A stretch of DNA of 26,040 bases from Bacteroidia bacterium (GCA_030054235.1 JASGCG010000001.1:1-26040), one strand, 5' to 3'. Counted from the stretch's first letter, positions 679 through 21,012 are shown. Numbers and translations are program-made. Notes: generated by a model from the sequence alone, not told the origin.

Positions 679-3600
679 CTAACGACGCCCCGCCCGGCGG
701 ATCCGCAGCGAGGCGATCTCGAAGGCGCGCAGTCCGAGCCACCAGCCATCGCGGTCCGTGCACGGCGCGAGCCTCGAACGCGCGAGCGGTGCCTCGAAGA
801 AGTCGCAGCGCACCACGTCGTCATGCGGCATCGACGGCGACACCAGCACCTGCCGCGGGGCGCCAGAGTGATCGACCACGCGCACCACGACATCGCCGCT
901 TCCATCGGACGCGGGCTTCATCGCGCTCACCTCGAGCAAGCCGTCGCCGAAGGCGAGGATCCCGACCGGATGCATGCCCGCAGCGGCAGCACCGGCGCGA
1001 CCCGTCGACACCGTGATGGGCGGATTGTTGAACCACTCGGCCTGCACGGAAACCGACGAGGCATCCTGCCCGACCGGCAGGATCGCGTACTCGAACTCGT
1101 GCACGCCGCGGTCGCACGTGGGGTCGGGGAAGTTGGGACTCTTGACCAGCGTCAGGCCCATGGAGCCGAGCTTGCCGCTCTTGCCGAAGATGCCATCGTC
1201 GAGGATCGCCACACCGTCTTGGCCATCATGGATGAGCATCCAGTCGTGGCCGGGCACTTCGAACTGCGCTGCCTGCCAACTCGTGTTGTCGTGCGCGTCG
1301 CGGTCGATCCAGCCGCACTGCGTGCCGAAGCGCACCGTCCGGCTGCGGAGCGCCGTGGGGAAGAGCGCTCGCAGCACCGTGCGTTCCTCGCACCAGTCGA
1401 GCCGGGTATGGATGCGCAGGTACGACTCGCCGGGGCGCAGGCTGCAGGTCTGCACGATGCGGCTCGCACGGCCGAGCGCGCGCTCGATGCGCAGCATGGG
1501 CACGCCACCACGCACGATCGGCGTGATCGTCGGGCGCCCGGTGATCGGGATCGGCTTCTCGGCATGCTCACGGTCGGTATCCCACGCTTCCCAGCGACGC
1601 GGCCGATCCTCGTAGAGGGCCAGCTCGTTGAGGCCGTGGCCATCGCGAGCGGTGCAGGAGATGCCGTCGCGCTCGATCCAGCTCACGCGGCCTTGCGCAT
1701 CGAACTCCGCAACGTCGTGGCCGAGCGCGAGCGTGGTCCGCGTGGCCTTGGCGCGAGCGGGCTTCGGGCGACGCACGGTCGACACGCCGCACTCGGGGAT
1801 CTCCTGCAGGCGAGGCTCATCTATGCCGGCGGGTCCGGCCGGTTCGAGCTCGATCGCGGTGCTCGCCGGATTGAAGACGACCTCGCCGGCGGCAGGAACG
1901 CGCGCGCGGATGCGGGCGAGGCCATCGTCACGCAGGGCCTCGAGCCGCTTGAGCGCCGCACCCATGGCGATGCGCGCATCGTCGTACACGGCCTTGATGC
2001 TCGAACCCGGCAGGATGTCGTGGAACTGGTGCAGCAGCACGGTCTTCCAGAGTCCGTCGAGCTCGGCGAGCAGCGCGCGCTCCTCGGCGCGGGGCATCGG
2101 CGCGATCACGGCAAGCATCTCGACCTGGCGCAGCAGGCGCTCGCCACGCCGGTTCGCCCGCTTGATCCAGCGCTGGCTGGTGTAGGTGCCGCGGTGCGCT
2201 TCGAGGTAGAGCTCGCCGTCCCAGACCGGCAGCGGCTCGCCCCGGCGCTCGCTCGCGCGCGCCTGCCGGTGCAACTCGCCGCACAGGTCCCCTGCCTTCA
2301 TCGGCTCGCACGCTGGAAGCCCCTGCGATCGCCGCGCATTCGCCGCACGCTCGATCTGCGACGGATCGGGCCCGCCGCCGCCATCGCCCCAGCCGTACGG
2401 CTGCAGGTAGGCGCGCACACGCCCTCGATCCTGGCGCTCGATGTTGCGCGCGCCCGCCACGAGATCGTTCGGGAGGAACTCGCTGTTGTAGTTGTGGCCC
2501 GGCGTGAAGTGGCTGAGCACCTCGGTGCCGTCGAGCCCGCGCCATCGGAACGTCACATGCGGGAAGCGGTTGGTACCGCTCCAGATCATCTTGTTGGTGA
2601 TGAAGGTATCGAGCCCCGCAAGCGCGATGATCTGCGGCAGGCACGCAGGGAATCCGAACGTGTCGGGCAGGTAGAGGAACCGCTGCGGTGCGGCGGCCCC
2701 GAACTGCTCGCGCCACCAGCCGGTGCCATGCACGATCTGGCGGATGAAGCTCTCGCCGCTCGGGCACGTGCCGTCGGGCTCGATCCACATGGCGCCGTTG
2801 GGCTCCCAGCGTCCAGCCTTCACGGCCTTGCGGACCTGGTCGAACAGCGCGGGGCTCTCCTCCTGCACCATGCGGTACTGCGCCGCCTGACTGCAGAGGA
2901 ACGTGAAGCCCGGGAAACGCTCGATCGATCGAAGCGCCGTCGCGAAGGTGCGCACGCACTTGCGACGCGTCTCGTCGATCCTCCAGAGCCAGGCCGTGTC
3001 GATGTGTGCGTGACCGATCGGCACGCACGTGATGGCATGCAGCGGATCGGCAGAACCCTTCAGCAGCGCCTCGAGCGCCGGTGCCTGGGCCAGCACCACC
3101 GATCGCGAGATGGTCGCTGCGGGGATCGCACGCACGATGGCACCCAGGCCGCTGCGCAGGTCATTGGTGCGCGGGTCCTCGGCGCTCCCGTTCCACAGGC
3201 AGCGGCGCAGGAGATCGAAGCGCTCGGCGAACTGCCACAGGCCTTCGTCAAGCACGACGAGCTCGGCGCACTCGAGCCGCCCGGGCTTGCGCTCGCTCCA
3301 GCGCGCACGGACCTCGGGCTGGTCCCACCAGAACGTCGTCGCCCCCAGCGGGAGATTGCACGCGGCTTCGATCCACAGGTCGACACGCTGGCCCGCACGG
3401 CCGCGAGCACGGTCGTTCCACACGAGCGGTGCGATCGGTGCGGTGTCGTGGTACGGATCGAGGCCCGCGTGCGGCACGCCGTCGACCCAGACGCACGCCT
3501 CGGTGCCGCTGGAAAAGCGCAGGAGCACACGCTCGCCGGCAAAGTCGCGCGGCATCGTCCCCTGCACGCGGAACCAAGCGGTCGACCAGATCGGGCCCCA

Positions 3601-3780
3601 CCGGTAGCCCGGTTCGACCCTGGTCCGACGGGCGCGCTGCGCCACGTTCGGCGCCACACGCTCGGCGAAGTGGGCGACCTCGACGCGCAACGCCTCGCGA
3701 CGGGGCGCGGCGAGCGGGCGGAGGAGATCGTTGCAGAACTCCTCGAAGCGGATGGCATCCATCTGGTGGTCGGGCAGCAC
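679..3780 (-). CDS. Glycoside hydrolase family 38 alpha-mannosidase
   Basis: GHAHIDTAW (Zn-binding HxD), WEPNGAMW, PDTFG (nucleophile Asp), ELYLEAHRGTYTSQ, QFHDILPGSSI, QFEVPGHDW, CDRGVHEFEY. Start moved from the ORF-track 3819 to GTG 3780 because TACGCT lies exactly 6 nt upstream; ATG 3762 is an alternative. Confidence 0.95.
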   Translation of the reverse strand: MLPDHQMDAIRFEEFCNDLLRPLAAPRREALRVEVAHFAERVAPNVAQRARRTRVEPGYRWGPIWSTAWFRVQGTMPRDFAGERVLLRFSSGTEACVWVDGVPHAGLDPYHDTAPIAPLVWNDRARGRAGQRVDLWIEAACNLPLGATTFWWDQPEVRARWSERKPGRLECAELVVLDEGLWQFAERFDLLRRCLWNGSAEDPRTNDLRSGLGAIVRAIPAATISRSVVLAQAPALEALLKGSADPLHAITCVPIGHAHIDTAWLWRIDETRRKCVRTFATALRSIERFPGFTFLCSQAAQYRMVQEESPALFDQVRKAVKAGRWEPNGAMWIEPDGTCPSGESFIRQIVHGTGWWREQFGAAAPQRFLYLPDTFGFPACLPQIIALAGLDTFITNKMIWSGTNRFPHVTFRWRGLDGTEVLSHFTPGHNYNSEFLPNDLVAGARNIERQDRGRVRAYLQPYGWGDGGGGPDPSQIERAANARRSQGLPACEPMKAGDLCGELHRQARASERRGEPLPVWDGELYLEAHRGTYTSQRWIKRANRRGERLLRQVEMLAVIAPMPRAEERALLAELDGLWKTVLLHQFHDILPGSSIKAVYDDARIAMGAALKRLEALRDDGLARIRARVPAAGEVVFNPASTAIELEPAGPAGIDEPRLQEIPECGVSTVRRPKPARAKATRTTLALGHDVAEFDAQGRVSWIERDGISCTARDGHGLNELALYEDRPRRWEAWDTDREHAEKPIPITGRPTITPIVRGGVPMLRIERALGRASRIVQTCSLRPGESYLRIHTRLDWCEERTVLRALFPTALRSRTVRFGTQCGWIDRDAHDNTSWQAAQFEVPGHDWMLIHDGQDGVAILDDGIFGKSGKLGSMGLTLVKSPNFPDPTCDRGVHEFEYAILPVGQDASSVSVQAEWFNNPPITVSTGRAGAAAAGMHPVGILAFGDGLLEVSAMKPASDGSGDVVVRVVDHSGAPRQVLVSPSMPHDDVVRCDFFEAPLARSRLAPCTDRDGWWLGLRAFEIASLRIRRAGRR

Positions 3781-3823
3781 GCAGGCAGCGTACGGTGCAG
3801 TCGCGTGGCACACCATCACGACA

Positions 3824-3849
3824 GCGCCCCGCCGGCGAGGGCGGGGCGC
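3824..3849. terminator. Perfect 10-bp GC hairpin between DUF481 gene and mannosidase; possible terminator or mRNA stabiliser
   Basis: GCGCCCCGCC (3824-3833), 6-nt loop, GGCGGGGCGC (3840-3849); 26 nt past the DUF481 stop on the minus strand; no clear U-tract. Confidence 0.45.
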
Positions 3850-3875
3850 GGATCGACGAAGGCCGGAGGCCGGGC

Positions 3876-4784
3876 TCAGAAGTTGAACTGGATGCCGGCG
3901 TAGTACCGGAGCTCGTTCTTCGCCGTGCCGTCGGTCGCGCTCGAGTTGTACTCGTCACGGACGCCAGCGATGAACGAGAGGTTGTCGGTGTTGGGGATGT
4001 CCCAGATGAAGTCGGCGTACACGTTGATGAAGTAGAACTCCTGGAAGTTCGCGACGTCGGGCACGTACTGGCCGCCGAACTTCACGCGCTGCTCGTCATT
4101 GATCGTCCACAGGCCTTCGAACGAGGCCAGGAAGCTCGGATACCAGCGATCGCTCGTCCCTTCTTCACGCGTGGCACCGAAACCGATGCGGGGCGTGAGT
4201 TCGAGCGGCTTCTCGGTGTAGAGCCGGTAGCCGACCCCGCCGAAGATGCTGTAGCGCTGCTTCCACGACTGGAACTCGTCGTACTCGAACTGCGCCTTCT
4301 CGAAGATCGTCCAGCGGCTCTCGCCGAGGTCACGCTCGAGGATCTGCGTGGCGAGCGCGTTGTTGTCCTGCGCCTCGCCGTTGTTGGATCGGTAGTACCA
4401 CTGCGCATCGACCTGGAAGAGCCAGCCGTCTTCCTTGTAGAGCGTGCCGCCCGCGAGCCGCACGTCCAGGGTGTCGTTGGTCGACTGCACGCCCGAGACC
4501 GAGGCGTTCACGTAGGACTTCCAGGGCGAGGCCGGTGCCGGCGGTGCGATCGCCTTCACCTCGGTGAACTGGTCGGGTCGAAGCGCGATGTCGCCCAGCA
4601 CCGGGTGCTTGAGCACGATGCCGTTGGCATCCTGCTTGGTGACTTCGCCCTTGAGGGTCTCTCCGTTGGAGAGCTTCACCTCGGACTGCGGGGGCGTGGG
4701 CTGGGCCTGCACCAGGGCAAGCGCATCGGCGAAGGCGAGGGGTGCTGCGAGCAAGGCAGCCAAGAGCGCAAGGCAACGAGTCAT
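3876..4784 (-). CDS. DUF481/YdiY-like outer-membrane beta-barrel protein
   Basis: Signal peptide MTRCLALLAALLAAPLAFA with GGAG SD upstream of ATG 4784; N-terminal 'V.L.NG..L.G.V' module; alternating aromatic beta-strands (WTIFEKAQFEYDEFQ, FGGVGYRL); C-terminal YYAGIQFNF with terminal Phe. Confidence 0.8.
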   Translation of the reverse strand: MTRCLALLAALLAAPLAFADALALVQAQPTPPQSEVKLSNGETLKGEVTKQDANGIVLKHPVLGDIALRPDQFTEVKAIAPPAPASPWKSYVNASVSGVQSTNDTLDVRLAGGTLYKEDGWLFQVDAQWYYRSNNGEAQDNNALATQILERDLGESRWTIFEKAQFEYDEFQSWKQRYSIFGGVGYRLYTEKPLELTPRIGFGATREEGTSDRWYPSFLASFEGLWTINDEQRVKFGGQYVPDVANFQEFYFINVYADFIWDIPNTDNLSFIAGVRDEYNSSATDGTAKNELRYYAGIQFNF

Positions 4785-4852
4785 GCTGGGTCTCCGGTCG
4801 ATCAGGCGGGTTTCTGCGGCAGCCGACCGTGGCGGAAGTCCGATGGCGATCC

Positions 4853-4880
4853 TTGCCTTCGGGGGGCGGCACCATACACT
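4853..4880 (+). promoter_or_regulatory. Sigma70-type promoter for the Cys-rich ORF/efflux operon; predicted leaderless start
   Basis: TTGCCT (4853-4858), 16-nt spacer, TACACT (4875-4880), 6 nt, GTG 4887. Confidence 0.6.
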
Positions 4881-4886
4881 CACTCC

Positions 4887-5300
4887 GTGCGAGGCGTGAC
4901 CGTCCATCTGCTCGCGATGTGGATCGCGATGTGCTGCTGCCAGTGGCGCGCTGTCGGCGCTGCCATGGGCCTGCAGTCGATCCCGTCATGCTGCGCGCCG
5001 ACAGAGCCGGTCGATCCCTGCTGCGATAACTGCTGCACGGGTCCGGACGAGCGCAGTGAAGACGAACGACCGCCGGCCGACTCCAACCGGTGCGCCGGCT
5101 GCTGCGACAAGGGCCTTGCCCCATCCGCCGACGACCTGCCGTCGTCGCTCTTCGACCTCCACCTCGATCACCTCGGCACCCTGCTGCTTCATGTGCCGAG
5201 CATCGCCCTGCCATCGATCGATCGATCGATCGAACATGGCACCGTGTGGCACCCGCCGCCGGGCCGATTCCGGCCGCTGGTCTGCATCCTGACCGTGTGA
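4887..5300 (+). CDS. Small Cys-rich exported/membrane protein (137 aa), DUF2946/CutF-like putative regulatory uORF
   Basis: 3' end of ORF-track 3081..5300. Hydrophobic N-terminus, 13 Cys (CCC, CC, CCxxCC, CxxCC, terminal C), His cluster LHLDHL, C-terminal WHPPPGRFRPLVCILTV. Promoter upstream; efflux operon 75 nt downstream. Confidence 0.7.
   Translation: MRGVTVHLLAMWIAMCCCQWRAVGAAMGLQSIPSCCAPTEPVDPCCDNCCTGPDERSEDERPPADSNRCAGCCDKGLAPSADDLPSSLFDLHLDHLGTLLLHVPSIALPSIDRSIEHGTVWHPPPGRFRPLVCILTV
5213..5232. repeat. Tetranucleotide tandem repeat (ATCG)5 inside the Cys-rich ORF
   Basis: ccATCGATCGATCGATCGATCGaa, encoding P-SIDRSI-E; longest such run seen in the window. Confidence 0.95.
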
Positions 5301-5308
5301 CGTGACGC

Positions 5309-5373
5309 TGATCGTTGCCGCACCCCTCATCGGGTCCGCGGTGCTTTCTCGCATCCATCATCACCAAGGATCA
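5309..5373 (+). promoter_or_regulatory. Putative SD-sequestering stem-loop upstream of the TolC-like gene
   Basis: TGATCGTTG (5309-5317) is complementary to CAAGGATCA (5365-5373) at 8/9 positions and covers the SD AAGGA (5366-5370). Inner GCACC (5320-5324)/GGTGC (5340-5344) pair. Folding energy not computed. Confidence 0.4.
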
Positions 5374-5375
5374 CC

Positions 5376-6743
5376 ATGCCGAAGCCCCTGTTTCGGGCTG
5401 CCGCCGCTCTCCTGGCCTTCGTTCTGGCCGCCTTCCTGGCCGCAGCCTGCACCTCGACCGACCATCACGACGCATCGCGCGACACGCTTGAGAGGGATCT
5501 CGCACGCGCTGCGCTCGATGGCGGCGCGAACCCGCTCCCCGCTCCCGCCGGCGCACCACCGACCGACCGCGCCCTGACGGCCGACGCCGCCGTGGCGGCC
5601 GCACTCTCCAGCAATCCATCCTTCCGCGCCGATGTGCTCGCCGCGCACGAGGCTGCTCTCGCGGTCGATGCCGTGGCGCTCGGCCCCACGCCGATGGTCA
5701 TGCTCGAGATCGGCGTGCCCCTCACCGACACGGCCACCGTACCGATCCTGGCACTGCTCACCGCATCGCTGACCGATCTCGTCACTCGCGGCGATCGGAT
5801 GGAGATCGCCAGCCTGCGGGCCCAGGCCATGCATCTGTCAGCCATCGATGCTGCAACGATGCTCTCGGCCTCGGTGCGCGAGCGCCATGCGATGGCCTGG
5901 CGTGCGCAGGAGTCCCTGCACCTGGCAGAGGCTCGCTTCGCTCTCGCCCAGACCGAGGCCGATCGCGAGAGCGCGCTCGCCTCGAAGGGCCTTGCATCCG
6001 TCCGCCGTGACCAGGCCGGTGCGGCGATGCTGGCTTCCGCGCGTGCTCAACTCGAGCAGGCGCGGTCCGCGCACACCACGGCGGTGCGCGCACTCGCCGC
6101 CGCGATGGGTTGTGCCCGGCAGGATGTCGAGTGGGCCGTGGCTCGTCCGGAACTGCCGCCATGGCCGGACGCCGGCCTGATCGGCAACAGTGCCGTGACA
6201 CCCGCGGCCCGCATGGCCGTTGCACTCGCGGCCGCGACGCGCATCGAGGCCGAGCTCGTCCGCTCGGGGTTGACGCAGAACGCCAACCTCGGCACCGGCT
6301 ACATGCAGGACGAAGAAGACATGAAGGCGATCCCCATCGTGCTGCAGTTCGCGCTGCCGATCGGTGCCGAGGGCGCCACGCGTGAACAACGCGCCGCGCT
6401 CATGGACGAGTCGGCAGCGCTTCGTGCCGAGGCAGCTCTGCAACAGGCGCATGTCCGGCTCGCCGATGCGCTCGACCGCGAGTCATCCGCCCGCGTGGCG
6501 GCCGAGGCGCTCGAGCGCACCACGCTCGCCGCCGCGCGGACCCAGCATGAACGGCTGCGCACGCTCGCCCAGCGCGGTGCGGCTACCACCAAGGAGCGCG
6601 ACCAGGTGCGCATGGCCTGCCTCGATGCCGAGAGCGAGGCAGTCATGGCGCATGCCAACGCCTGCATCGCCGCCGCCGAGCGGGTCGCCGCCAGTGCGGG
6701 GCTTGACCTGGCGCAGGACGGCGGGCGGAGGGCCGAGCGATGA
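5376..6743 (+). CDS. TolC/CusC-like outer membrane efflux factor, lipoprotein
   Basis: Lipobox LAAAC, long Ala/Glu-rich coiled helices, duplicated architecture, beta-strand segment ANLGTGY...IVLQFALPI; AAGGA SD; directly upstream of adaptor gene with ATGA overlap. Confidence 0.85.
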   Translation: MPKPLFRAAAALLAFVLAAFLAAACTSTDHHDASRDTLERDLARAALDGGANPLPAPAGAPPTDRALTADAAVAAALSSNPSFRADVLAAHEAALAVDAVALGPTPMVMLEIGVPLTDTATVPILALLTASLTDLVTRGDRMEIASLRAQAMHLSAIDAATMLSASVRERHAMAWRAQESLHLAEARFALAQTEADRESALASKGLASVRRDQAGAAMLASARAQLEQARSAHTTAVRALAAAMGCARQDVEWAVARPELPPWPDAGLIGNSAVTPAARMAVALAAATRIEAELVRSGLTQNANLGTGYMQDEEDMKAIPIVLQFALPIGAEGATREQRAALMDESAALRAEAALQQAHVRLADALDRESSARVAAEALERTTLAAARTQHERLRTLAQRGAATTKERDQVRMACLDAESEAVMAHANACIAAAERVAASAGLDLAQDGGRRAER

Positions 6744-7933
6744 CCGACCCGATCACCACATCGACGCAGGAGCCGAGCATGATGCAGCCCACCATGATTC
6801 CACCGCCAAACCGACGCGCAACGCGACTCTTCGCCTTCGGCGTCTGGAGTGGCGCGATCGCCGGCGCCTTCGCGCTCATCGTGTTCTGGTTCGGCCGGCC
6901 GCAGCCGGTCGCCATCACGCGGGCCGTGGCGCGCGAACTCGGTTCGTCCTTCGCTGGCAGCATCGTGCAGGCGCCGGGCTGGATCGAGGCTCGCCCCTAC
7001 GCCACCCTGGTCCCGGGCCTCGTCGATGGCACGGTCACCTCGGTCAGGGCGATCGAGGGCGATGCCGTGAAGGCCGGACAGGTGCTCGCCACGATCGATG
7101 CGCGGCCCTTCGAGGAAGCCGAGCAGCAGACAGCGGGCGCTTATGCGATGGCGCGGGCCGAGACCGTGCAGGCACGCCTGCAGCACACGCTTGCGGACGC
7201 GCGACTCAGCGTCGGCGAGGCCGCGCAGGTCGACGTCGACCTGGCGGCAGCGCAACTCGCACGTGCCGAGGGCGCGGAACTCATGGCGCGGGGCGCCTGG
7301 GAACGTGCCGCACTCGACGTCGAACGCTGCAGCGTGATCGCACCGGTCGATGGCGTGATCTTCGAGCGCCGCGTCGAGCCGGGCGAGCGCATCGGGAGCG
7401 ACATGGAGAACGAAGGTGCCATGTTCGCGCTCTTCGATCCCGCCATGGTGCAAGTGCGCTGCGACGTACCGCTCGCCGATGCCGGCAGCGTGCTTCCTGG
7501 CCAGCTCGCCGAAGTCACGGTCGATGCCTTCAAGGGGCGGACCTTCCGCGGCACGGTGCTCGTGGGTGGTTTCAGGGCCGACATCGCAAAGAACACGCTG
7601 CAGGTCAAGATCGGCCTCGATGATGCCGACGGCCTGCTGCGCCCGGACACGCTCACGCGCGTGCGGATCATGGTGCCGGGTTCGAGCGCCGGCTCAGCAC
7701 GCACGCAGGTGGTGGTGCCTGCCGACTGGGTCGTACGCGATGGCTCACGCTCCACCGTCCTGGTGATGGATGCCGGCTTCCTGCGCCGCGTCGACCTCGG
7801 CGAGGCCACCGACACGGGCGATGGGTGGATCATCGCCGCAGACGGGATCCGCCCAGGCGAGGTGCTCGTGCATCCATCGCATGCCGCGCTGCCTGACGGC
7901 ACGCGCATCGCTCCCAAGGAGGAAACGCCATGA
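6740..7933 (+). CDS. Periplasmic adaptor (membrane fusion protein, HlyD/MacA-like)
   Basis: Single N-terminal TM; lipoyl half-motifs 'VDGTVTSVRAIEGDAVKAGQVLA' and 'VIAPVDGVIFERRVEPGE' flanking a coiled hairpin; ATGA overlaps on both sides. Confidence 0.92.
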   Translation: MTDPITTSTQEPSMMQPTMIPPPNRRATRLFAFGVWSGAIAGAFALIVFWFGRPQPVAITRAVARELGSSFAGSIVQAPGWIEARPYATLVPGLVDGTVTSVRAIEGDAVKAGQVLATIDARPFEEAEQQTAGAYAMARAETVQARLQHTLADARLSVGEAAQVDVDLAAAQLARAEGAELMARGAWERAALDVERCSVIAPVDGVIFERRVEPGERIGSDMENEGAMFALFDPAMVQVRCDVPLADAGSVLPGQLAEVTVDAFKGRTFRGTVLVGGFRADIAKNTLQVKIGLDDADGLLRPDTLTRVRIMVPGSSAGSARTQVVVPADWVVRDGSRSTVLVMDAGFLRRVDLGEATDTGDGWIIAADGIRPGEVLVHPSHAALPDGTRIAPKEETP

Positions 7934-8616
7934 GCCTCATCGAGTGCCGATCGCTTTGCAAGGATTACCAGCGCGGCGGTGAGGCCGTGCACGTCCTCGA
8001 CCGACTCGACCTGTCGATCGATCGCGGGTCCTACACCGCGCTCATGGGTCCAAGCGGCAGCGGCAAGACCACGCTGCTCAACCTTCTCGCGGGCATCGAC
8101 CGAGCCAGCTCGGGCGAGCTGCTCGTGGACGGGACGGATCTGGCGCAACTCGACCGCAACCAGCTCGCGCTCTGGCGATCGCGCCACGTGGGCTACGTGT
8201 TCCAGCTCTACAACCTCGTTCCCGTGCTCTCGGCGTACGAGAACGTCGAACTTCCGCTGCTGCTGCACGACCTCACCGCCGCCGAGCGGCACCGACGCGT
8301 CGTCGAGGCGCTCGAGTCCGTCGACCTGGCGACCCGCCATGGTCACCTGCCCCGCCAACTCTCAGGCGGCCAGGAACAGCGCGTCGCGATCGCCCGCGCG
8401 CTGGTGACGCAACCCACGCTGCTGCTGGCCGATGAACCGACAGGCGATCTCGACCGCACCAACGCCGATGCGGTCATGGACCTCTTCGGCCGGCTCCATC
8501 GCGAGCGTGGCCAGACGATCGTCATGGTCACGCATGACGAGGCCATCGCCCGGCGCGCAGAGCGCACCGTCCGCCTCGAAAAGGGCCGGCTCGCCACCGT
8601 GGAGGTGGCACGATGA
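7930..8616 (+). CDS. ABC transporter ATP-binding protein, MacB/LolD-type
   Basis: Walker A GPSGSGKTT, Q-loop GYVFQLYNL, signature LSGGQEQRVAIARAL, Walker B LLLADEPTGDLD, H-loop VTHD; AAGGAGG SD. Confidence 0.97.
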   Translation: MSLIECRSLCKDYQRGGEAVHVLDRLDLSIDRGSYTALMGPSGSGKTTLLNLLAGIDRASSGELLVDGTDLAQLDRNQLALWRSRHVGYVFQLYNLVPVLSAYENVELPLLLHDLTAAERHRRVVEALESVDLATRHGHLPRQLSGGQEQRVAIARALVTQPTLLLADEPTGDLDRTNADAVMDLFGRLHRERGQTIVMVTHDEAIARRAERTVRLEKGRLATVEVAR

Positions 8617-9767
8617 GCGCACTCCTGAGCAGGATCCGCTACGCGCTTCGCAGCGCGCGCCGCCAGCGATTTCGCACCGTGGCCTTGGTCGCCGGTGTCG
8701 CCCTGACCACGTCGCTCGCCGCGGCGATCGCGTGCATCGATCTTGGCGTGCGCGACGCCACGACCACTCGCGCGGGCGAGACACGGCTGATCGTGTACCG
8801 CGAGAACCGGTTCTGTCCCTTCGCGAGCGCGCTGCCGCAGCGGTACGACCGCCAGATCGCCGAGCTGCCCGGCGTGGCGGCCGTCATGCCCGTGAAGATC
8901 GTCGTCTCCAATTGCCGCGCCTCGCTTGATGTGGTGACCTTCCGTGGTGTGCCGGTCGATGACCTGCGCGCGATGGCGCCCCGACTTGCAGCCGGCTCGA
9001 TCGACGCTTGGGCCGGCCACGGCAATGGCGCCTTGGTCGGGCGCGAACTCGCGGCTCGGCGCGGCCTGCGCGTGGGGTCATCCCTGACGGCCGCGGGCAT
9101 CGATGTCGTGGTCGATGGCATCCTCGAGAGCGATGATCCGCAGTGGCGCAACAGCGCGCTCACGCACCTGGCCTACCTGCAGGAGCGGGCCGCGCGCGGG
9201 GGAACTGGCGGCATCGTGACGCAGTTCGACGTGACCGTGAGCGACCCAGCGCGGCTCGAGGACGTGGCGCGGACCATCGACGAACGGTTCAAGGCGGACG
9301 AGGCCCCCACCGCGACTCGCCCGCAGACGGCGTTCGTGGCCCGCGCCGCGCGTGATGTGGTCGCGCTCGCAGGCTTCAGTTCGATCATCGGCATCGGTGC
9401 GGTGCTCGCTGCCTTCGGCCTCCTCGCCACGACGATGGTCAACGTCACGCGGCATCGCTCGCGCGAGTTCGCGGTCCTGCGCACGTTGGGCTTCACCGAC
9501 GGCGGCATCAGCGCCATCGTGCTTGCCGAGGGCGCACTCGTCGGCGGGCTCGGGGGCCTTCTGGGCGCGGGCCTGGCCTGGTTCGGGCTCGCGCGTGCCG
9601 GACTGGCGTTCACCATGGAAGGCGTCTCGATCACGCCGCGGCTGGATCCTGCGATCTTCATCGTTGCCGCTGCGGTGGCGCTTGCGGCAGGACTGCTGGC
9701 CACGGCGATTCCAGCATGGTCGGCGTCGCGCGCGCGGCTGGTCGATCTCCTGCGGGGTGCATCATGA
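8613..9767 (+). CDS. ABC transporter permease 1, FtsX/MacB-like
   Basis: One N-terminal TM, periplasmic domain with 'GALVGRELAARRGLRVG', C-terminal three-TM FtsX domain with 'RSREFAVLRTLGFT'; ATGA overlaps. Confidence 0.93.
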   Translation: MSALLSRIRYALRSARRQRFRTVALVAGVALTTSLAAAIACIDLGVRDATTTRAGETRLIVYRENRFCPFASALPQRYDRQIAELPGVAAVMPVKIVVSNCRASLDVVTFRGVPVDDLRAMAPRLAAGSIDAWAGHGNGALVGRELAARRGLRVGSSLTAAGIDVVVDGILESDDPQWRNSALTHLAYLQERAARGGTGGIVTQFDVTVSDPARLEDVARTIDERFKADEAPTATRPQTAFVARAARDVVALAGFSSIIGIGAVLAAFGLLATTMVNVTRHRSREFAVLRTLGFTDGGISAIVLAEGALVGGLGGLLGAGLAWFGLARAGLAFTMEGVSITPRLDPAIFIVAAAVALAAGLLATAIPAWSASRARLVDLLRGAS

Positions 9768-10927
9768 CGATGCTCCCGATGGAGTACTCGCTGCGCGGGC
9801 TCACGCGTGGGCGCGGGCGGACCGTGCTCGCACTCATGGGATCGTTGGTGGCGGGCGCGCTCATCGCGACGGCATCGGCGTTCCTGGGCGGCATGGAGTC
9901 AGCGCTTGGATCGACGGCCTCGCCTTCGCGCGTGATCGTCATGGGTGCAGGCAGCGAGGAATCGCTCGAGCGCAGCGAGATCGGCGCGCGTGTGCCGGGC
10001 GTGCTGTCGGCGAGCGTGCAGGGCATACGACGGACGGCAGGCATGGAGCACGTGAGCGCCGAGACGCACGTGGCGCTGCCGATCGCCGTGGATGGCGCCG
10101 AGGCCGCGAGCGACAACGGTCTGGTGCGCGGCGTCGGTCCGGCAGCGCTCCTGGTCCACCCCAACGTGCAGCTCACCGGCGGGCGCTGGCCCGAACGCGG
10201 CGCCGGCGAAGTGCTGGTCGGTTCGAGCGCCATGCGCAGGCTCGGCGTGGATCCAGCGGCTGCCATCGGCAGTCGTGTCGTGCTGGCCGGCGCACCGCTC
10301 ACGATCGTGGGCACCATGCAGGCGCCGGGATCGACGATCGACGGCGAGTGGTGGATGCCGCTGGAAGACCTCACCACGCTGATGCGGCGCGAGACGATCT
10401 CGTGCGTGATCGTCGACCTCGACCGCGCGACGATCGGCGACGTGCAAGCCTTCACGCTCTCGCGGCTCGATCTTGAGCTCGCCGTCCTGGCCGAACGCGA
10501 CTACTACGCGTCGCTGCTTGCGTTCTTCGCACCGGTGCGTGTGCTCGTGGCGGTCGTGGCCACGCTCATGGCGCTCGCCGCCGCGCTCGGCGGCGCGAGC
10601 GCACTGGCCGCTGCCTTCAGTGAGCGCGTGCGCGAGAACGCGGTGCTGGAAACGCTCGGGTACCCGCGCCATGCGGTCATCCTCGATGTCCTCCTGCAGT
10701 GCACGATCGTGGCGGTCAGCGGTGCCGCTGTCGGCGGCCTGCTGGCGCAGTGGCTCTTCGGCGGCATGCTTGTCGAGTTCAGCATGGGCACGTTCGCCTT
10801 GCAGTTCGATGCACGTGCCACGCTCCTGGCCGCCGTGACGGGTTTCGTCGTCGCGATCGTCGCGGCCTTCCTCAGCACCTGGCGCTGGATCGGGCTGCCG
10901 ACGCCCGAGGCGCTGCGGACGACATGA
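9764..10927 (+). CDS. ABC transporter permease 2, FtsX/MacB-like
   Basis: Start at ATG 9764 (ATGA overlap with permease 1 stop): MTMLPMEYSLRGLTRGRGRT; 'GRWPERGAGEVLVG'; FtsX motif 'ERVRENAVLETLGY'. Confidence 0.92.
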   Translation: MTMLPMEYSLRGLTRGRGRTVLALMGSLVAGALIATASAFLGGMESALGSTASPSRVIVMGAGSEESLERSEIGARVPGVLSASVQGIRRTAGMEHVSAETHVALPIAVDGAEAASDNGLVRGVGPAALLVHPNVQLTGGRWPERGAGEVLVGSSAMRRLGVDPAAAIGSRVVLAGAPLTIVGTMQAPGSTIDGEWWMPLEDLTTLMRRETISCVIVDLDRATIGDVQAFTLSRLDLELAVLAERDYYASLLAFFAPVRVLVAVVATLMALAAALGGASALAAAFSERVRENAVLETLGYPRHAVILDVLLQCTIVAVSGAAVGGLLAQWLFGGMLVEFSMGTFALQFDARATLLAAVTGFVVAIVAAFLSTWRWIGLPTPEALRTT

Positions 10928-10963
10928 CTCGCCACTCTTGAATCACCACAGAAGGATCCAACC

Positions 10964-11539
10964 ATGCATCGACTCAACGCACTCATGCTCGCCTCCTCCG
11001 TCCTCTTCCTTGCAGCCTGCGGTGGCCAGAGTGGCGACCATGACCACAGCCACACGCGGCACGGACATGACCACGCCGCACCCACCGCGCCTGCAGCTCC
11101 CGAGGGCACATTCCCTGCAGCGCTCTTCTCCGGCGACCCAGCGGCGGAGCCAGTCGGCGTGGGGGCCATGAAGGCATCGGCCAAGCAAGGCGACCGCGTG
11201 ATCGTGGTTGGTCGCATCGGTGGCAGCAAGGATCCCTTCCTCGCTGACCGGGCCATGGTCACGATCGTCGATCCGAGCGTGAAACTCTGCGGCGAGGACG
11301 AGCCCGGCGATGACCACTGCGCGACCCCGTGGGACTTCTGTTGCGAGCCGCGCGAGAACCTGCGCAGGATGTCGATCGCGGTCGTGGCGAACGGAGCCGA
11401 CGGTGCACCCATTCCCCACACGCTGCTCGGCCAAGGAGGGCTCAAGCCCGGCGCGCGCGTGGTCGTCGAGGGCACCGTCGCGACGGTCGGCCCGGACGGC
11501 GCCGCGATGCTCGTGGCCGAGCGCATCGTGGCCCGGTGA
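10964..11539 (+). CDS. His/Cys-rich lipoprotein of unknown function, probable OB-fold metal-binding protein
   Basis: Lipobox LAAC; DHDHSHTRHGHDH; C-x9-C-x-TPWDFCC; beta-rich 'GDRVIVVGRIGG' and 'GARVVVEGTV' segments; AAGGA SD. Confidence 0.8.
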   Translation: MHRLNALMLASSVLFLAACGGQSGDHDHSHTRHGHDHAAPTAPAAPEGTFPAALFSGDPAAEPVGVGAMKASAKQGDRVIVVGRIGGSKDPFLADRAMVTIVDPSVKLCGEDEPGDDHCATPWDFCCEPRENLRRMSIAVVANGADGAPIPHTLLGQGGLKPGARVVVEGTVATVGPDGAAMLVAERIVAR

Positions 11540-11545
11540 GGGATC

Positions 11546-11596
11546 TTGAACACCATGAATTTTGAATACCGTACAATCCGAATTTCATGGTAGTTT
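11546..11596 (+). promoter_or_regulatory. AT-rich promoter/operator with 8-bp inverted repeat
   Basis: ACCATGAA (11552-11559) / TTCATGGT (11584-11591) with a 24-nt spacer; TACAAT at 11572-11577; TAGTTT at 11591-11596 exactly 6 nt before ATG 11603. Confidence 0.6.
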
Positions 11597-11602
11597 CTGG
11601 GC

Positions 11603-12757
11603 ATGCTCCGCCGCGACGAAGCCCGTGCCGCCATCACCCGCGCCATGCGGCGATCGCCAGTCGCCCTGCTGCTGGGTCCCCGCCAGTGCGGCAAGACCAC
11701 GCTTGCCCGCTCCTTCGTCGACGTCGGCAGCGAGGCCTACTTCGATCTTGAGTCGCCCGCCGACCTTGCACGCCTTGCCGAGCCGATGACCGCGCTCGGC
11801 AACCTGCGAGGCACCGTCGTCATCGACGAGGTGCAGCGCCGGCCGGACCTCTTTCCCGTGCTCCGCGTCCTGGCCGACAGGCGACCGCTCAGGACGCGAT
11901 TCCTCGTCCTGGGCAGCGCCTCGCCCCACATGCTCCGGCAGTCGTCGGAGTCCCTCGCCGGACGAGTCGAACTCATCGAGCTCGGTCCCCTCACGCTCGA
12001 AGAGTGCGGGCAGGCCAAGCTCGGGCGACGCTGGCTCCGGGGCGGCTTCCCCCGCTCGTTCCTGGCGCGCTCGCAAGGCGACAGCGCGGCATGGCGCCGT
12101 GACTTCATCGCCACCATCATCGAACGCGATCTGCGCTCCTACGACAGCAGGCTGCCGTCGCCGCTGGCTCACCGGCTCTGGACCATGCTGGCTCATCACC
12201 ACGGCCAAGTCATCAACCTCAGCTCGGTGGCTGGGTCGCTCGGCATCACCGTCCCCACCTTGCGTCACCACATCAACCTGCTCGCGGGCCTCATGGTGAT
12301 CCGGCTGCTTCAACCGTGGCACGAGAATCTCGCCAAGCGGCAGGTCAAGAGCCCAAGGATCTACCTCCGCGACACCGGGCTGCTACACAGCTTGCTTGGG
12401 ATCGAGACCACCAAGCAGATGCTGGGTTCACCGGTCTGCGGTCCGAGCTGGGAATCGCTGGCCATCGAGGAGATCCTCGGCCGCGTGCCGCATGCAGGAG
12501 CCGCATGGTGGTCGACGCATCAGGGTGCCGAGGTCGACCTCGTGCTGCTGGCCAAGGGCAAGCGCTGGGGCGTCGAAGTCAAGCGGACCGATGCACCGCG
12601 CATCACCCCATCCATGCGCAGTGCCATCGAAGCACTTGGACTCGATGGCATCACGGTGGTGTCGCCGGTCGACCGCGGCTTCAGGCTCTCCCCGGCGATC
12701 AAGGTCGTGGCGATGCATGACCTGATCGCCGATCCCGCAAGCGTCATCCGGCGTTGA
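11603..12757 (+). CDS. AAA+ ATPase, AAA_14 + DUF4143 (COG1373-type)
   Basis: Walker A GPRQCGKTT, Walker B VVIDEVQR, 'LGSAS', 'ESLAGR', 'RGGFP', HTH-like INLSSVAGSLGITVPTLRHHI, 'KSPRIYLRDTG', C-terminal EVDLV..GVEVK. Confidence 0.92.
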   Translation: MLRRDEARAAITRAMRRSPVALLLGPRQCGKTTLARSFVDVGSEAYFDLESPADLARLAEPMTALGNLRGTVVIDEVQRRPDLFPVLRVLADRRPLRTRFLVLGSASPHMLRQSSESLAGRVELIELGPLTLEECGQAKLGRRWLRGGFPRSFLARSQGDSAAWRRDFIATIIERDLRSYDSRLPSPLAHRLWTMLAHHHGQVINLSSVAGSLGITVPTLRHHINLLAGLMVIRLLQPWHENLAKRQVKSPRIYLRDTGLLHSLLGIETTKQMLGSPVCGPSWESLAIEEILGRVPHAGAAWWSTHQGAEVDLVLLAKGKRWGVEVKRTDAPRITPSMRSAIEALGLDGITVVSPVDRGFRLSPAIKVVAMHDLIADPASVIRR

Positions 12758-18336: not shown

Positions 18337-21012
18337 ATGTCGCTCCTGAGTGCGCTTCTTGCCGCCGTGGCGGTCTTCGGAACCAGCCCGGCTTCTGCCC
18401 CCGCGAACTGGCTCGTTGCAGATGACCATGGTCGGCTTGCTCCCGTGCCTGGCCTGCATCAGGCCGTGCTGCAGCGCCTGCGCTCGGACCGTGCCATCAC
18501 GAAGCGAGCACTCGGCGCCCCCGAACTCCAGATCGATGTTCCGGTCGGCTCGCTCGGCATGCTCGCCCTTGACCTCAGGCCGATGCCGGCGATCGCCCGC
18601 GATGCCTTCGTCGAGGTCGGCGCGGCGGAGCGCATGCGTGACCACGCGCTGACCGGCGTGCTGCTCGACACGGTGCACCTGCAGGGCACCGTCATCGGCC
18701 ATCCCCGCTCGAGCGTCTACGTCGGCATCGGTTCGACCGGCATCGCCGCGACGATCGACCTTGGTTCAGGCCAGGGAACGTGGACCCTCCGACGCTCGGG
18801 CAGCGATGCACCCGGGCTCTGCTCCGGTCCAGTCGAGTTTGTGCGCACCACGGGCACCAGCGCGCCCGAGGTCCCCGCGTGCGGCGCCGAGTGCTCCGGT
18901 CATCACGGCGGCGACGGCAGCCTTGCCGGCACGGGCGTGATCGTGCCCGGCGCGCGGCCCGTGGTCGAGCTCGCCGTCGACAGCGACTTCGAGTTCCTGC
19001 GCATCTTCGGCGGCGATGGCGTCGCTGCCACCGAGTACATCGCCACGCTCGTCGGTGCCGTCTCGGCGATCTACCGCCGCGACTGCGACACGACGATCGC
19101 GCTCGCCTATGTGCGGTTGCAGCCCGACGCCGACGACCTGTTCAACCAACCCGATCCGCTCGGGCCGTTCCGGACCTGGTGGAACGAGAACGGCGCCGAC
19201 GTCGATCGTGATCTCTTCACGCTGCTGACGGGCCGCCGCGACCTGCCGTATGGGGGCGTGGCGTGGCTCAATGCCGCCTGCACCGACTTCGGCTATTCCG
19301 TCAACGGGTACCTCAACGGCCGCTTCGTCGATGCCTTCGCCACCAACCCCGGCAACTGGGACGTCAACGTCACCGCGCATGAATTCGGCCACAACCTCGG
19401 CACGCTGCACACCCACGACTACTCGATCGACGCGTGCGCGTCGGGCACGGTGCAGCGCGGCACGATCATGAGCTACTGCCACGTCGTGTCGGGCGCGAGC
19501 TCCAACATCGATCTTCGGTTCCACGCCGGGACCGTCGACCCCATCAAGGCCTTCGTCGCGGCGGCGGCGTGCCTGGCCCGCGACTGCGACGACGACGGGT
19601 TCGATGACGCCGACGAGATCGCGGCCGATCCCCTGCTCGATGCAAACGGCGATGGCCTGCTCGATGCGTGCCAGGACTGCAACGGCAATGCAACGCCGGA
19701 TCCCGTGGAGATCGCAGCCGGCACGCTCGTGGATGCCAACGCCAACGGCCGTCCGGACTCGTGCGAGCCCGACTGCGACGGCAACGGCGTCGCCGACACG
19801 ATCGATGCCATGCTCGATCCTGCGAAGGACTCCAACGGCGACTTCGTGCTGCAGTCCTGCGAGCCTGACTGCAACGGCGATGGCATTGCCGACAGCGACG
19901 CGGTGCTGGCGGACATGTCCCTCGATCGATCGCGTGACGGCGTGCCCGATGCGTGCGAGGACTGCGACGGCGACGGGACGGTGGACTTCCTCGAGCTCCA
20001 GGGCTCGATGTCGCGCTGGGTCGGCTCACGGAGCGATGCCCTCCTGCGAGAGCTCGATCCGCGCTCGGGCGTGCTGCGACGGACCGTCGCGCTGGGCTCG
20101 GCGTCGGTCGAGGACCTTGTCATCGCACCCGATGGCCGGCTGCTCGCGATCGAGGGCCTGAACGCGTGGGCGCTCGATCGATCATCGCCAGCCAACCAAC
20201 CCGTGCGCTGGGGACCGGCCTTCGCGAACCAGTTGCGTTCGATTGCGGTGGCGCCCGATGGACGGATCGCCGTGATGCAGCGCAACGGGCGGACCACGCT
20301 TCACGAACCGGATGGCTCGCTCTCGGCCAGCTGGCTTCCCGCCTTCGCCGACCAGGATGCGCGCGATCTCGTCTTCCGCACCCTGCCTGACGGCACCCAT
20401 GAGGCCATCGCCACCCGCAGCAACGGCGTCGTCATGGCGTTCGCGTGGCCTCAGGGAGCGGACCGTGTGCTCGCCGACCTGTCGGCACAGGTGCCGGACC
20501 TTGCCGGTGCTTTCGTGATGAACGATGGGTCGATCCTGCTCGCCGCGACGGCGCTCGATCGCATCATCAGGCTTGGCGCCGACGGCACCGATCTGGGCGA
20601 ATGGGACGTGGACAACGGACTGCTGCTGGATGGCGTGGTGGCGCTGTGTGCAGCCGGTGACGGCCGCGCAATCCTGGCGGCCGCTCCCAACAGCAGTTCG
20701 ACGGTCAACGGCTTCGCGCTCGTGAATGGCTACACCGAGCGCACCTATCGCATCTATCCCGCGGATGCACCGCGCCCGAGCGCGATCGTGATCGCTCCGC
20801 CAAGTGCAACCGACCTCAACGGCAACCTCATTCCTGATGCGTGCGAGGGTCCGATCGGCGACGTCGATCGCGACGGCGATGTCGATGGCGCCGACCTGGG
20901 CATCATGTTGGCCACCTGGGGCGACTGCGCCGGTTGCGCCGCCGATCTCAACGATGATGGCACGGTGGATGGCGCCGACCTCGGCGTGCTGCTGACGTCC
21001 TTCGGGGTGTGA
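18337..21012 (+). CDS. Secreted zinc metalloprotease (M12B/reprolysin-like) with Ca-binding repeats, beta-propeller and dockerin-like C-terminus
   Basis: Signal peptide; PACG cysteine-switch-like motif; VELAVDSDFEF; HEFGHNLGTLH (HExxHxxGxxH, 19378-19410); Met-turn IMSYC; DCxGxGxxD/DxNxNGxPDxC repeats; propeller blades; paired GDVDRDGDVDGADLG / ADLNDDGTVDGADLG. Confidence 0.9.
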   Translation: MSLLSALLAAVAVFGTSPASAPANWLVADDHGRLAPVPGLHQAVLQRLRSDRAITKRALGAPELQIDVPVGSLGMLALDLRPMPAIARDAFVEVGAAERMRDHALTGVLLDTVHLQGTVIGHPRSSVYVGIGSTGIAATIDLGSGQGTWTLRRSGSDAPGLCSGPVEFVRTTGTSAPEVPACGAECSGHHGGDGSLAGTGVIVPGARPVVELAVDSDFEFLRIFGGDGVAATEYIATLVGAVSAIYRRDCDTTIALAYVRLQPDADDLFNQPDPLGPFRTWWNENGADVDRDLFTLLTGRRDLPYGGVAWLNAACTDFGYSVNGYLNGRFVDAFATNPGNWDVNVTAHEFGHNLGTLHTHDYSIDACASGTVQRGTIMSYCHVVSGASSNIDLRFHAGTVDPIKAFVAAAACLARDCDDDGFDDADEIAADPLLDANGDGLLDACQDCNGNATPDPVEIAAGTLVDANANGRPDSCEPDCDGNGVADTIDAMLDPAKDSNGDFVLQSCEPDCNGDGIADSDAVLADMSLDRSRDGVPDACEDCDGDGTVDFLELQGSMSRWVGSRSDALLRELDPRSGVLRRTVALGSASVEDLVIAPDGRLLAIEGLNAWALDRSSPANQPVRWGPAFANQLRSIAVAPDGRIAVMQRNGRTTLHEPDGSLSASWLPAFADQDARDLVFRTLPDGTHEAIATRSNGVVMAFAWPQGADRVLADLSAQVPDLAGAFVMNDGSILLAATALDRIIRLGADGTDLGEWDVDNGLLLDGVVALCAAGDGRAILAAAPNSSSTVNGFALVNGYTERTYRIYPADAPRPSAIVIAPPSATDLNGNLIPDACEGPIGDVDRDGDVDGADLGIMLATWGDCAGCAADLNDDGTVDGADLGVLLTSFGV
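19582..19988 (+). repeat. Protein-level tandem TSP3-like Ca-binding repeats (about 4.5 units of ~33 aa)
   Basis: DCDDDGFDD..DANGDGLLDAC / DCNGNATPD..DANANGRPDSC / DCDGNGVAD..DSNGDFVLQSC / DCNGDGIAD..DRSRDGVPDAC / DCDGDGTVD. Confidence 0.85.

Follow-up and report, generated by a model that had tools for sequence, protein, structure and literature searches.

A conserved planctomycete operon joining a MacB-type tripartite exporter to a Cys-rich ORF and an OB-fold lipoprotein: a candidate metal-handling module

INTRODUCTION

Can a MacB-type ATP-binding cassette (ABC) transporter drive a periplasmic metal-handling system? The question is raised by a 26,040-nucleotide stretch of DNA (JASGCG010000001.1:1-26040, assembly GCA_030054235.1), here called the window, in which seven co-oriented genes occupy positions 4887-11539: a small Cys-rich open reading frame (ORF), the genes of an outer-membrane factor (OMF), a periplasmic adaptor, an ABC ATPase and two permeases, and a lipoprotein gene. 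Tripartite metal efflux is textbook territory of the resistance-nodulation-division (RND) pumps, and to our knowledge none of the characterised tripartite type VII ABC pumps has a known metal substrate. A preliminary description of this DNA, made from the sequence alone, listed the same seven genes and proposed that they form an undescribed metal-handling system; the gene list is borne out by the ORFs and by Pfam and NCBIfam matches. The source genome is a 2.15-Mb metagenome-assembled genome (MAG), 75% complete, and its nearest named records are freshwater Phycisphaerae and Planctomycetota MAGs.

RESULTS AND DISCUSSION

The seven genes form a conserved operon

The Cys-rich ORF (4887-5300, on the plus strand like the six genes that follow) is separated by a spacer of 75 nt (5301-5375), in which an AAGGA Shine-Dalgarno (SD) sequence can be read, from the gene of the OMF of the TolC/OEP family (5376-6743). 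The genes for the membrane-anchored adaptor (6740-7933), the ABC ATPase (7930-8616), permease 1 (8613-9767) and permease 2 (9764-10927) follow, all four junctions from the OMF through permease 2 being ATGA overlaps, and after a gap of 36 nt the lipoprotein gene (10964-11539) ends the cluster.

An initial homologue search with the lipoprotein gave 43 matches, an undercount that was corrected by whole-genome and profile searches. The lipoprotein profile matches 123 of the 401 sampled Planctomycetota genomes, among them 84 of the 243 of high quality. Its core motif occurs in at least 598 related stretches in species-representative genomes, and an exhaustive profile search yields 1474 lipoprotein clusters at 50% identity, some of them with two domains in tandem. 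Among the carriers of the module are several complete genomes on a single contig, for example those of L035, L040 and L044.

Synteny was compared in 40 sampled loci of 20 kb and in 80 more. The lipoprotein gene directly follows the permease 2 gene in 37 of the first 40 loci and in about 70 of the 80 fetched afterwards, and it lies directly 3' of permease 2 wherever flanks are available (about 100 loci). Some genomes show the order seen in the window, adaptor-ATPase-permease 1-permease 2-lipoprotein, and Planctomycetia-type genomes have the order permease 2-lipoprotein-adaptor-ATPase-permease 1. The linkage of permease 2 and lipoprotein survives this rearrangement and is therefore strong evidence that the two are functionally coupled. 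In most loci the module is preceded by a small Cys-rich ORF, and a hidden Markov model (HMM) of its family locates it upstream of the module in 49 loci besides the window, about 20 of which were not used in building the model. The preliminary description had held that homologous clusters usually lacking the Cys-rich ORF and the lipoprotein would speak against it; in the loci compared this is not the usual situation. Judged by these comparisons of sequence and gene order, the seven-gene cluster is a real conserved operon and functional unit.

A tripartite type VII ABC pump with two permeases

The OMF, which has a lipobox and a lipoprotein-type N-terminus, matches the Pfam family OEP with 33 bits (cut-off 22). 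The adaptor matches HlyD_D23, HlyD_3 and TIGR01730 RND_mfp, the last with 127 bits (cut-off 95), and in the PDB its sequence is best matched by a MexC-like adaptor and by the heavy-metal adaptor ZneB. The ATPase matches ABC_tran with 121 bits; its top NCBIfam matches are LolD, YbbA, FtsE, DarD, DevA and MacB, those to LolD, YbbA, FtsE and DevA staying below the equivalog cut-offs. Both permeases combine FtsX (PF02687; 57 and 40 bits) with MacB_PCD (PF12704; 38 and 46 bits), in each case above the gathering cut-off. The permease domain build and the ATPase of the LolD/FtsE/MacB clade identify a type VII (MacB/FtsX-fold) ABC transporter, and the adaptor and OMF, encoded with the pump and joined to it by the ATGA overlaps, give it the tripartite MacAB-TolC-type build.

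The module thus shares with MacAB-TolC, PvdRT-OpmQ and DevBCA-HgdD the FtsX plus MacB_PCD permease, the ABC ATPase, the HlyD-type adaptor and the OEP-family OMF, and mechanotransmission that expels periplasmic substrates, as in MacAB-TolC, is the mechanism to be expected of it. It differs from these pumps in having a heterodimeric permease pair, a separate ATPase and two extra conserved Cys-bearing components, and also in the invariant periplasmic cysteines of permease 1, which stand in the motifs C68-P69 and N100-C101-R102 and are kept throughout 33 diverse sequences (alignment A6) and in a set of 40. Metal motifs in permease 2 and in the adaptor were considered and rejected: permease 2 has no invariant periplasmic Cys and no conserved Cys, His or Met cluster in alignment A7, and the adaptor has no such cluster and no obvious metal-binding motif.

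Two paralogous FtsX permeases with one ATPase are also the layout of LolCDE, and sequence comparison with the PDB and NCBIfam gives LolC, LolE and LolD as the best matches. The module might accordingly have no metal role and be an envelope-maintenance machine, or a thiol/disulfide-linked MacB- or Lol-like one, which moves, for example, a lipid, a lipoprotein or a glycolipid; its cysteines would then be structural disulfides. We regard this as unlikely, since the Lol scores are far below the family cut-offs (46 and 22 bits for the permeases against 362 for the LolC/E equivalog TIGR02212, and 231 bits for the ATPase against 308 for the LolD equivalog TIGR02211) and since the adaptor and OMF, by which the module differs from LolCDE, point to expulsion. 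Moreover, the module was found in only about 31% of the sampled genomes of the phylum; it was not found in about two thirds of them and is therefore not a core envelope function.

An OB-fold lipoprotein with a near-invariant Cys loop

The lipoprotein (191 residues) has the lipobox L-A-A-C, a linker with a stretch of six His and a C-x9-C-x-TPWDFCC loop. Of 167 representatives, 160 keep all four of the loop cysteines (C109, C119, C126 and C127), and 94% have the lipobox Cys; P122, D124 and C126 are invariant, W123 is found in 166 of the 167, and D103 and D117 are largely conserved. Co-loss of cysteines was tried as a test of a disulfide versus a metal site and set aside, the exceptions being too few to decide. 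Only 10 of 122 homologues have the His arm, yet these belong to at least three separate clades; by this distribution the arm is a recurrent lineage-specific add-on, not a family feature. The protein had been introduced as a His/Cys lipoprotein, a name that holds for its near-invariant cysteines and fails for the His part.

The AlphaFold2 model (pLDDT 83.7) predicts an oligonucleotide/oligosaccharide-binding (OB)-type barrel with the Cys loop inserted between strands. Foldseek and VIA-align return generic OB folds only, with Z about 8-9 and no clear leader; the matches include the MCM N-terminal domain, Ten1, the anticodon domain of aspartyl-tRNA synthetase and, lower down, CcmE and YgiW, and PA4066 (DUF3299) is a weak Foldseek match. 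The sequence belongs to no Pfam or NCBIfam family, giving only sub-threshold matches to DUF5818 and OB Pfam families; a PDB profile search gave no match, nor did comparison with HMA, CusF, PCuAC and other known chaperone families. A generic OB fold with no recognisable metal-chaperone relative, and likewise the rarity of the His arm, are what a machine without a metal role would lead one to expect.

The top-scoring relatives of the lipoprotein (P0051-P0064 and similar) are proteins of 290-340 residues with two or three matched stretches, that is, with Cys-loop OB domains in tandem.

Homology of the lipoprotein to DUF3299 (PF11736) was rejected, with no match at E<=1 in 33 members and an hhalign probability of 0.4; DUF3299 genes occupy other loci of the same genomes. 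The DUF3299 proteins at loci of other Planctomycetota (L156-L166) carry an S/G-C-C-[FY]-G-x-x-P motif, at which the sole canonical-type member seen (L155) has G-A-C-I-H-T-P-P-P-P. Planctomycete DUF3299 is another OB-like periplasmic family with a vicinal Cys pair.

Co-folding of permease 1, permease 2 and the lipoprotein core gave an ipSAE of 0.49, and the three controls all gave 0.00. In calibration, 58 of 80 solved complexes passed the mark, as did 2 of 110 mismatched pairs; passes at <=0.60 comprise only 7 of the 80 solved complexes plus both passing mismatches, and the model therefore lends weak support to docking of the lipoprotein on the permease pair. The predicted interface involves lipoprotein residues 93-100, 126-139 (including the CC pair) and 174-182, which face residues 223-238 of permease 2 and 138-192 of permease 1.

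The Cys-rich ORF resembles CutF-like leaders

Read from the GTG at 4887, the Cys-rich ORF has 137 codons; this start is suggested by close relatives and would give an N-terminus (MRGVTVHLL...) with a charged n-region followed by a hydrophobic segment, the alternatives being GTG 4896 and ATG 4917. The ORF lies in a 590-bp gap left by a divergent DUF481 gene and has a coding-type composition, with a GC content of 0.82 at third codon positions (GC3) versus 0.64 at first and 0.56 at second positions. The N-terminus (MRGVTVHLLAMW...) is hydrophobic, a signal peptide having been assigned by eye only; the protein has 13 Cys, mostly as CC pairs, and a C-terminal WHPPPGRFRPLVCILTV, and HPPPGR stands 12 residues ahead of the stop. 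In the relatives at L077, L079 and L080 the first ~16 and the last ~20 residues hardly vary; between them the sequence changes, with the CC pairs kept. The 32 family members of alignment A4, which includes the protein of the window and underlies the HMM used above, share a hydrophobic N-terminus often ending in C-P-[FL]-x-C, an invariant CC, a D-C-x-C motif, a proline-rich stretch and a hydrophobic C-terminal tail.

A longer open frame of 739 residues (3081-5300, plus strand) runs through this region. It is spurious over most of its length, where it is antisense to the real DUF481 gene (3876-4785, minus strand), and it has coding-type GC3 only in its last ~137 codons, which are the Cys-rich ORF; automatic ORF callers could mis-annotate it.

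The CutF-like metal sensors are described by a set of rules: fewer than 150 residues, an N-terminal Sec-type segment, a Cys/His motif, a C-terminal proline repeat and a short spacer before a metal-homeostasis gene (PMC9973294). A C-terminal PPP-R motif and a spacer of less than 100 nt before an OEP gene are among the published features (PMC9973294; bioRxiv 10.1101/2025.02.05.636593), and the C-terminus of CutF itself is GPPPRL (both sources). With its 137 residues, N-terminal segment, 13 Cys, HPPPGR and 75 nt to the OEP gene, the Cys-rich ORF has this build, and it resembles CutF of Rhodobacter capsulatus and the CutF-like ORFs of the DUF2946 superfamily (CruR, CopL, CzcI and CusD/SilD) in its small size, N-terminal export segment, periplasmic Cys motifs, PPP-R and position less than 100 nt upstream of an OEP/efflux gene. 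It differs in having 13 Cys in CC pairs versus one CxxxC, about 12 further conserved hydrophobic residues after the PPP, no match to the DUF2946 HMM, a MacB-type ABC pump downstream and an unsupported stem-loop. Membership of DUF2946 or CopL was rejected, none of the 32 family members matching the DUF2946 HMM at E<=1 and one matching CopL_fam (NCBIfam) weakly (E 0.006). A stem that would hide the SD sequence in the spacer before the OMF gene had been proposed earlier and is not supported: it is present in the minimum-free-energy fold, missing from the centroid and no more stable than in shuffled sequences (z -1.03), and L079 alters both of its arms with no compensation.

At L003 (5528-6103, minus strand) we observe a paralogue of the Cys-rich ORF with a signal segment, CC, CCC and C-E-C-P-G-C motifs and an Arg-rich hydrophobic C-terminus. 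It lies directly upstream of an adjacent OEP-adaptor-RND operon, as CzcI does ahead of its heavy-metal efflux RND operon, and is divergent from the MacB-type module's own leader. From the paralogue at the head of an RND operon, the Cys-rich family therefore appears to behave as a general leader of metal-efflux operons, like CzcI, CusD and SilD.

MacAB-TolC exports a periplasmic Cys-rich peptide, the enterotoxin STII, and with this precedent the Cys-rich protein could be read as the cargo of the pump and not as a sensor. It would be exported by Sec, would bind metal in the periplasm through its CC pairs, in the manner of a disposable metallothionein, and would be expelled through the adaptor and OMF by the MacB-type pump, with the conserved C-terminal tail as recognition tag and the lipoprotein as receptor. 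Bulky substrates suit MacB pumps better than ions do, the extreme C-terminus (G-R-x-L-R ... L-I/C) is conserved even in family members that lack the PPP, and in one gene order the Cys-rich ORF stands not at the head but inside the operon, after the OMF gene. We nevertheless find it rather improbable that the protein is such a cargo: the paralogue stands at the head of an RND operon, to which a logic of peptide export does not apply; the middle part of the protein shows little conservation; the PPP-R motif and the short spacers agree with the CutF model; and nothing here shows release of the protein. It seems similarly doubtful that the pump expels metal bound to a disposable Cys-rich carrier while the four lipoprotein cysteines and the permease 1 pair form a thiol relay to the MacB bellows. 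If true, metal would be detoxified by export on a protein carrier, which is not known from any efflux system.

Metal genes adjoin the module at some loci

The window itself contains no RND pump (ACR_tran), P-type ATPase or metal regulator in its Pfam and NCBIfam annotation, and what had been claimed for the cluster in this respect thus extends to the whole window. Other loci have such neighbours. A protein with a signal peptide, an HMA domain and an M-C-x-G-C motif is encoded between the Cys-rich ORF and permease 2 at L003, L041 and L044, and at L040 an HMA protein and a P1B ATPase lie directly downstream of the module. P1B ATPases are found within 10 kb of the module at nine loci from several lineages (L003, L040, L044, L048/L119, L054, L086, L121, L122 and L150). 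The four that were typed (L003, L040, L044 and L054) are ZntA/CadA-like, scoring best with the Zn/Cd/Pb-type models of NCBIfam (500-546 bits for TIGR01512 and 524-622 bits for PRK11033). With 3-7 P1B genes per genome in five genomes of 2.9-7.4 Mb, adjacency would be expected by chance at about 1% per locus and is observed at roughly 10%, the loci not being phylogenetically independent. RND pumps stand beside the module at L003, L044, L054 and L067, and the two that were typed (L054 and L067) are of CzcA/CusA type.

This context bears again on the proposal that the module has no metal role. About 90% of the loci have no adjacent metal gene, and the metal-gene neighbours might reflect a general clustering of efflux genes; on the other hand, HMA genes are inserted in the operon at three loci, and the Cys-rich ORF family is common to the module and to an RND operon next to a ZntA-like ATPase, two observations that are hard to explain without metal. 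As regards the metal-handling role put forward in the preliminary description, the context partly supports it, with HMA proteins, P1B ATPases, CzcA-like RND pumps and the paralogous Cys-rich ORF; metal handling itself we infer. The neighbours are at least as suggestive of Zn/Cd-type metals as of Cu. Cu(I)/Ag(I) is suggested by the Cys-rich chemistry and by analogy with CutF, and Zn/Cd/Hg by the ZntA-like, CzcA-like and MerP-like neighbours.

The heavy-metal RND systems CusCFBA and CzcCBA(I), of a kind that itself adjoins the module at several loci, are also its counterparts in composition, with an OMF, an adaptor, an inner-membrane motor, a small periplasmic beta-barrel chaperone (the OB-like CusF) and a Cys/His leader (CzcI, CusD). 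The motor of the module differs, being an ABC/FtsX machine and not an RND antiporter, with no CusA/CzcA-type pump in the window. The candidate ligands of the lipoprotein are Cys and Asp versus Met, His and Trp in CusF, to which it has no sequence relation.

The nearest published precedent is PA4063-PA4066 of Pseudomonas aeruginosa, a metal-linked MacB-type exporter with periplasmic accessory proteins that is tied to zinc limitation and for which pyochelin-cobalt export has been proposed (PMC11481552). Together with the Vibrio system ZrgABCDE, likewise Zur-regulated, it resembles the module in its split ATPase and FtsX/MacB permease, its link to metal homeostasis and its dedicated periplasmic accessory proteins, one of which is His-rich and one OB-like (PA4066, DUF3299). 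This precedent would fit metal delivery or acquisition, in which the module metallates secreted or outer-membrane enzymes or exports a metallophore, and so would the window, where secreted metalloproteases are encoded and no resistance genes lie nearby. We think this very unlikely. Where metal genes are present beside the module they are ZntA-like ATPases and CzcA-like RND pumps, that is, efflux and resistance genes and not zinc-starvation genes; the inspected loci have no metallophore biosynthesis genes or TonB-dependent receptors beside the module; and CutF-like leaders with Cys motifs mostly precede detoxification genes (PMC9973294). The module further differs from PA4063-PA4066 and ZrgABCDE in that its lipoprotein is not a DUF3299 protein, in that it has no ZrgA/PA4063-like protein, and in that it has two different permeases and its own adaptor and OMF.

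Transcription of the locus

A sigma-70 scan of 4700-11700, a model from which planctomycete promoters may differ, found no site; neither a sigma-70 promoter at about 4853 nor the single promoter that had been proposed for the cluster was recovered. Four freshwater metatranscriptome libraries contain contigs that match 4896-8740 with 95-100% identity. Three of these contigs span the junction of the Cys-rich ORF and the OMF gene (4896-6177, 5008-5574 and 5174-6433), which is compatible with in-situ transcription of the Cys-rich ORF together with pump genes, a single transcript not being proven. Coverage over the permease genes is patchy or absent.

A separate observation concerns 8926-9953, which covers the latter half of permease 1 and the first part of permease 2, where the four libraries have no contigs of any depth; the genes upstream of 8926 have a contig depth of 8-22. 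The gap could be due to polarity within the operon, transcript processing or assembly drop-out.

Proposed mechanism

On balance we consider it probable that the MacB-type pump expels a thiophilic metal, that the lipoprotein serves in docking or in handing the metal over, and that the Cys-rich ORF is a CutF-like metal-sensing leader. The FtsX heterodimer, separate ATPase, anchored adaptor and OMF would form a tripartite type VII ABC machine, in which ATP-driven mechanotransmission would push periplasmic thiophilic-metal species, of Zn/Cd/Hg or Cu/Ag type, out through the adaptor and OMF. The OB-fold lipoprotein would be the dedicated periplasmic partner of the permease pair, its Cys/Asp loop most likely holding or handing over a metal or metal-thiolate beside the Cys pair of permease 1. 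The Cys-rich ORF would most likely act like CutF, CopL or CzcI, as a peptide exported during its translation, with periplasmic cysteines that sense metal and a Pro-rich C-terminus that links sensing to expression of the pump. Metal binding, the nature of the substrate, the direction in which it is moved and regulation by the Cys-rich ORF are all inferred.

Several observations weigh against this metal-efflux mechanism. The substrates of known MacB pumps are peptides, lipids, siderophores and drugs and not bare ions, and recognisable metal genes adjoin only about 1 locus in 10. Within the window, a metal-responsive regulator was not found in or near the operon. The four lipoprotein cysteines and the permease 1 Cys pair could be structural disulfides, C109 and C127 being lost together in three representatives, and to the rarity of the His arm is added the adaptor's lack of a metal motif. 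As for the leader, the PPP run is missing from many Planctomycetia versions of the Cys-rich ORF, DUF2946 is not matched and the SD-hiding stem is unsupported, and the RNA contigs are tied to no condition, with DNA carry-over possible.

The individual parts of the module are of known kinds: a type VII ABC pump, an adaptor, an OMF and a CutF-like leader. In the literature we found no description of a planctomycete MacB-type metal system, and we could not find described the combination of a two-permease MacB pump having its own adaptor and OMF with a four-Cys OB lipoprotein and a CC-rich leader outside DUF2946. The novelty first claimed for the system is to that extent upheld; its degree was overstated, given the CutF-like class (PMC9973294), in the main text of which a MacB-type ABC is not mentioned as a downstream neighbour class, and PA4063-PA4066 (PMC11481552).

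Other features of the window

The remaining genes of the window encode an alpha-mannosidase, a DUF4143 ATPase, a sugar kinase, an amidase, GyrB, secreted proteases, QueC and MoxR. Just downstream of the lipoprotein gene, 11545-11600 is an AT-rich stretch, unusual in a genome of 69% GC, with an imperfect palindrome (CCATGAATTT ... AATTTCATGG). The stretch closely precedes the AAA_14/DUF4143 ATPase gene (11603-12757) and is a possible operator or promoter. Two large secreted proteins are encoded further along, an M12B/reprolysin-like metalloprotease (18337-21012) and a protein with a C-terminal Dockerin_1 match (21224-23839).

Implications

The module is widespread, being present in about a third of the sampled Planctomycetota genomes, and the analysis assigns names and testable roles to two large families for which Pfam has no model, the lipoprotein and the Cys-rich ORF. 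If the proposed mechanism is true, CutF-type co-translational metal sensing would be extended to a new phylum and to a new class of pump, and a MacB-based metal pump, powered by ATP and working from the periplasmic side, would be a third energetic route by which metal is cleared from the periplasm.

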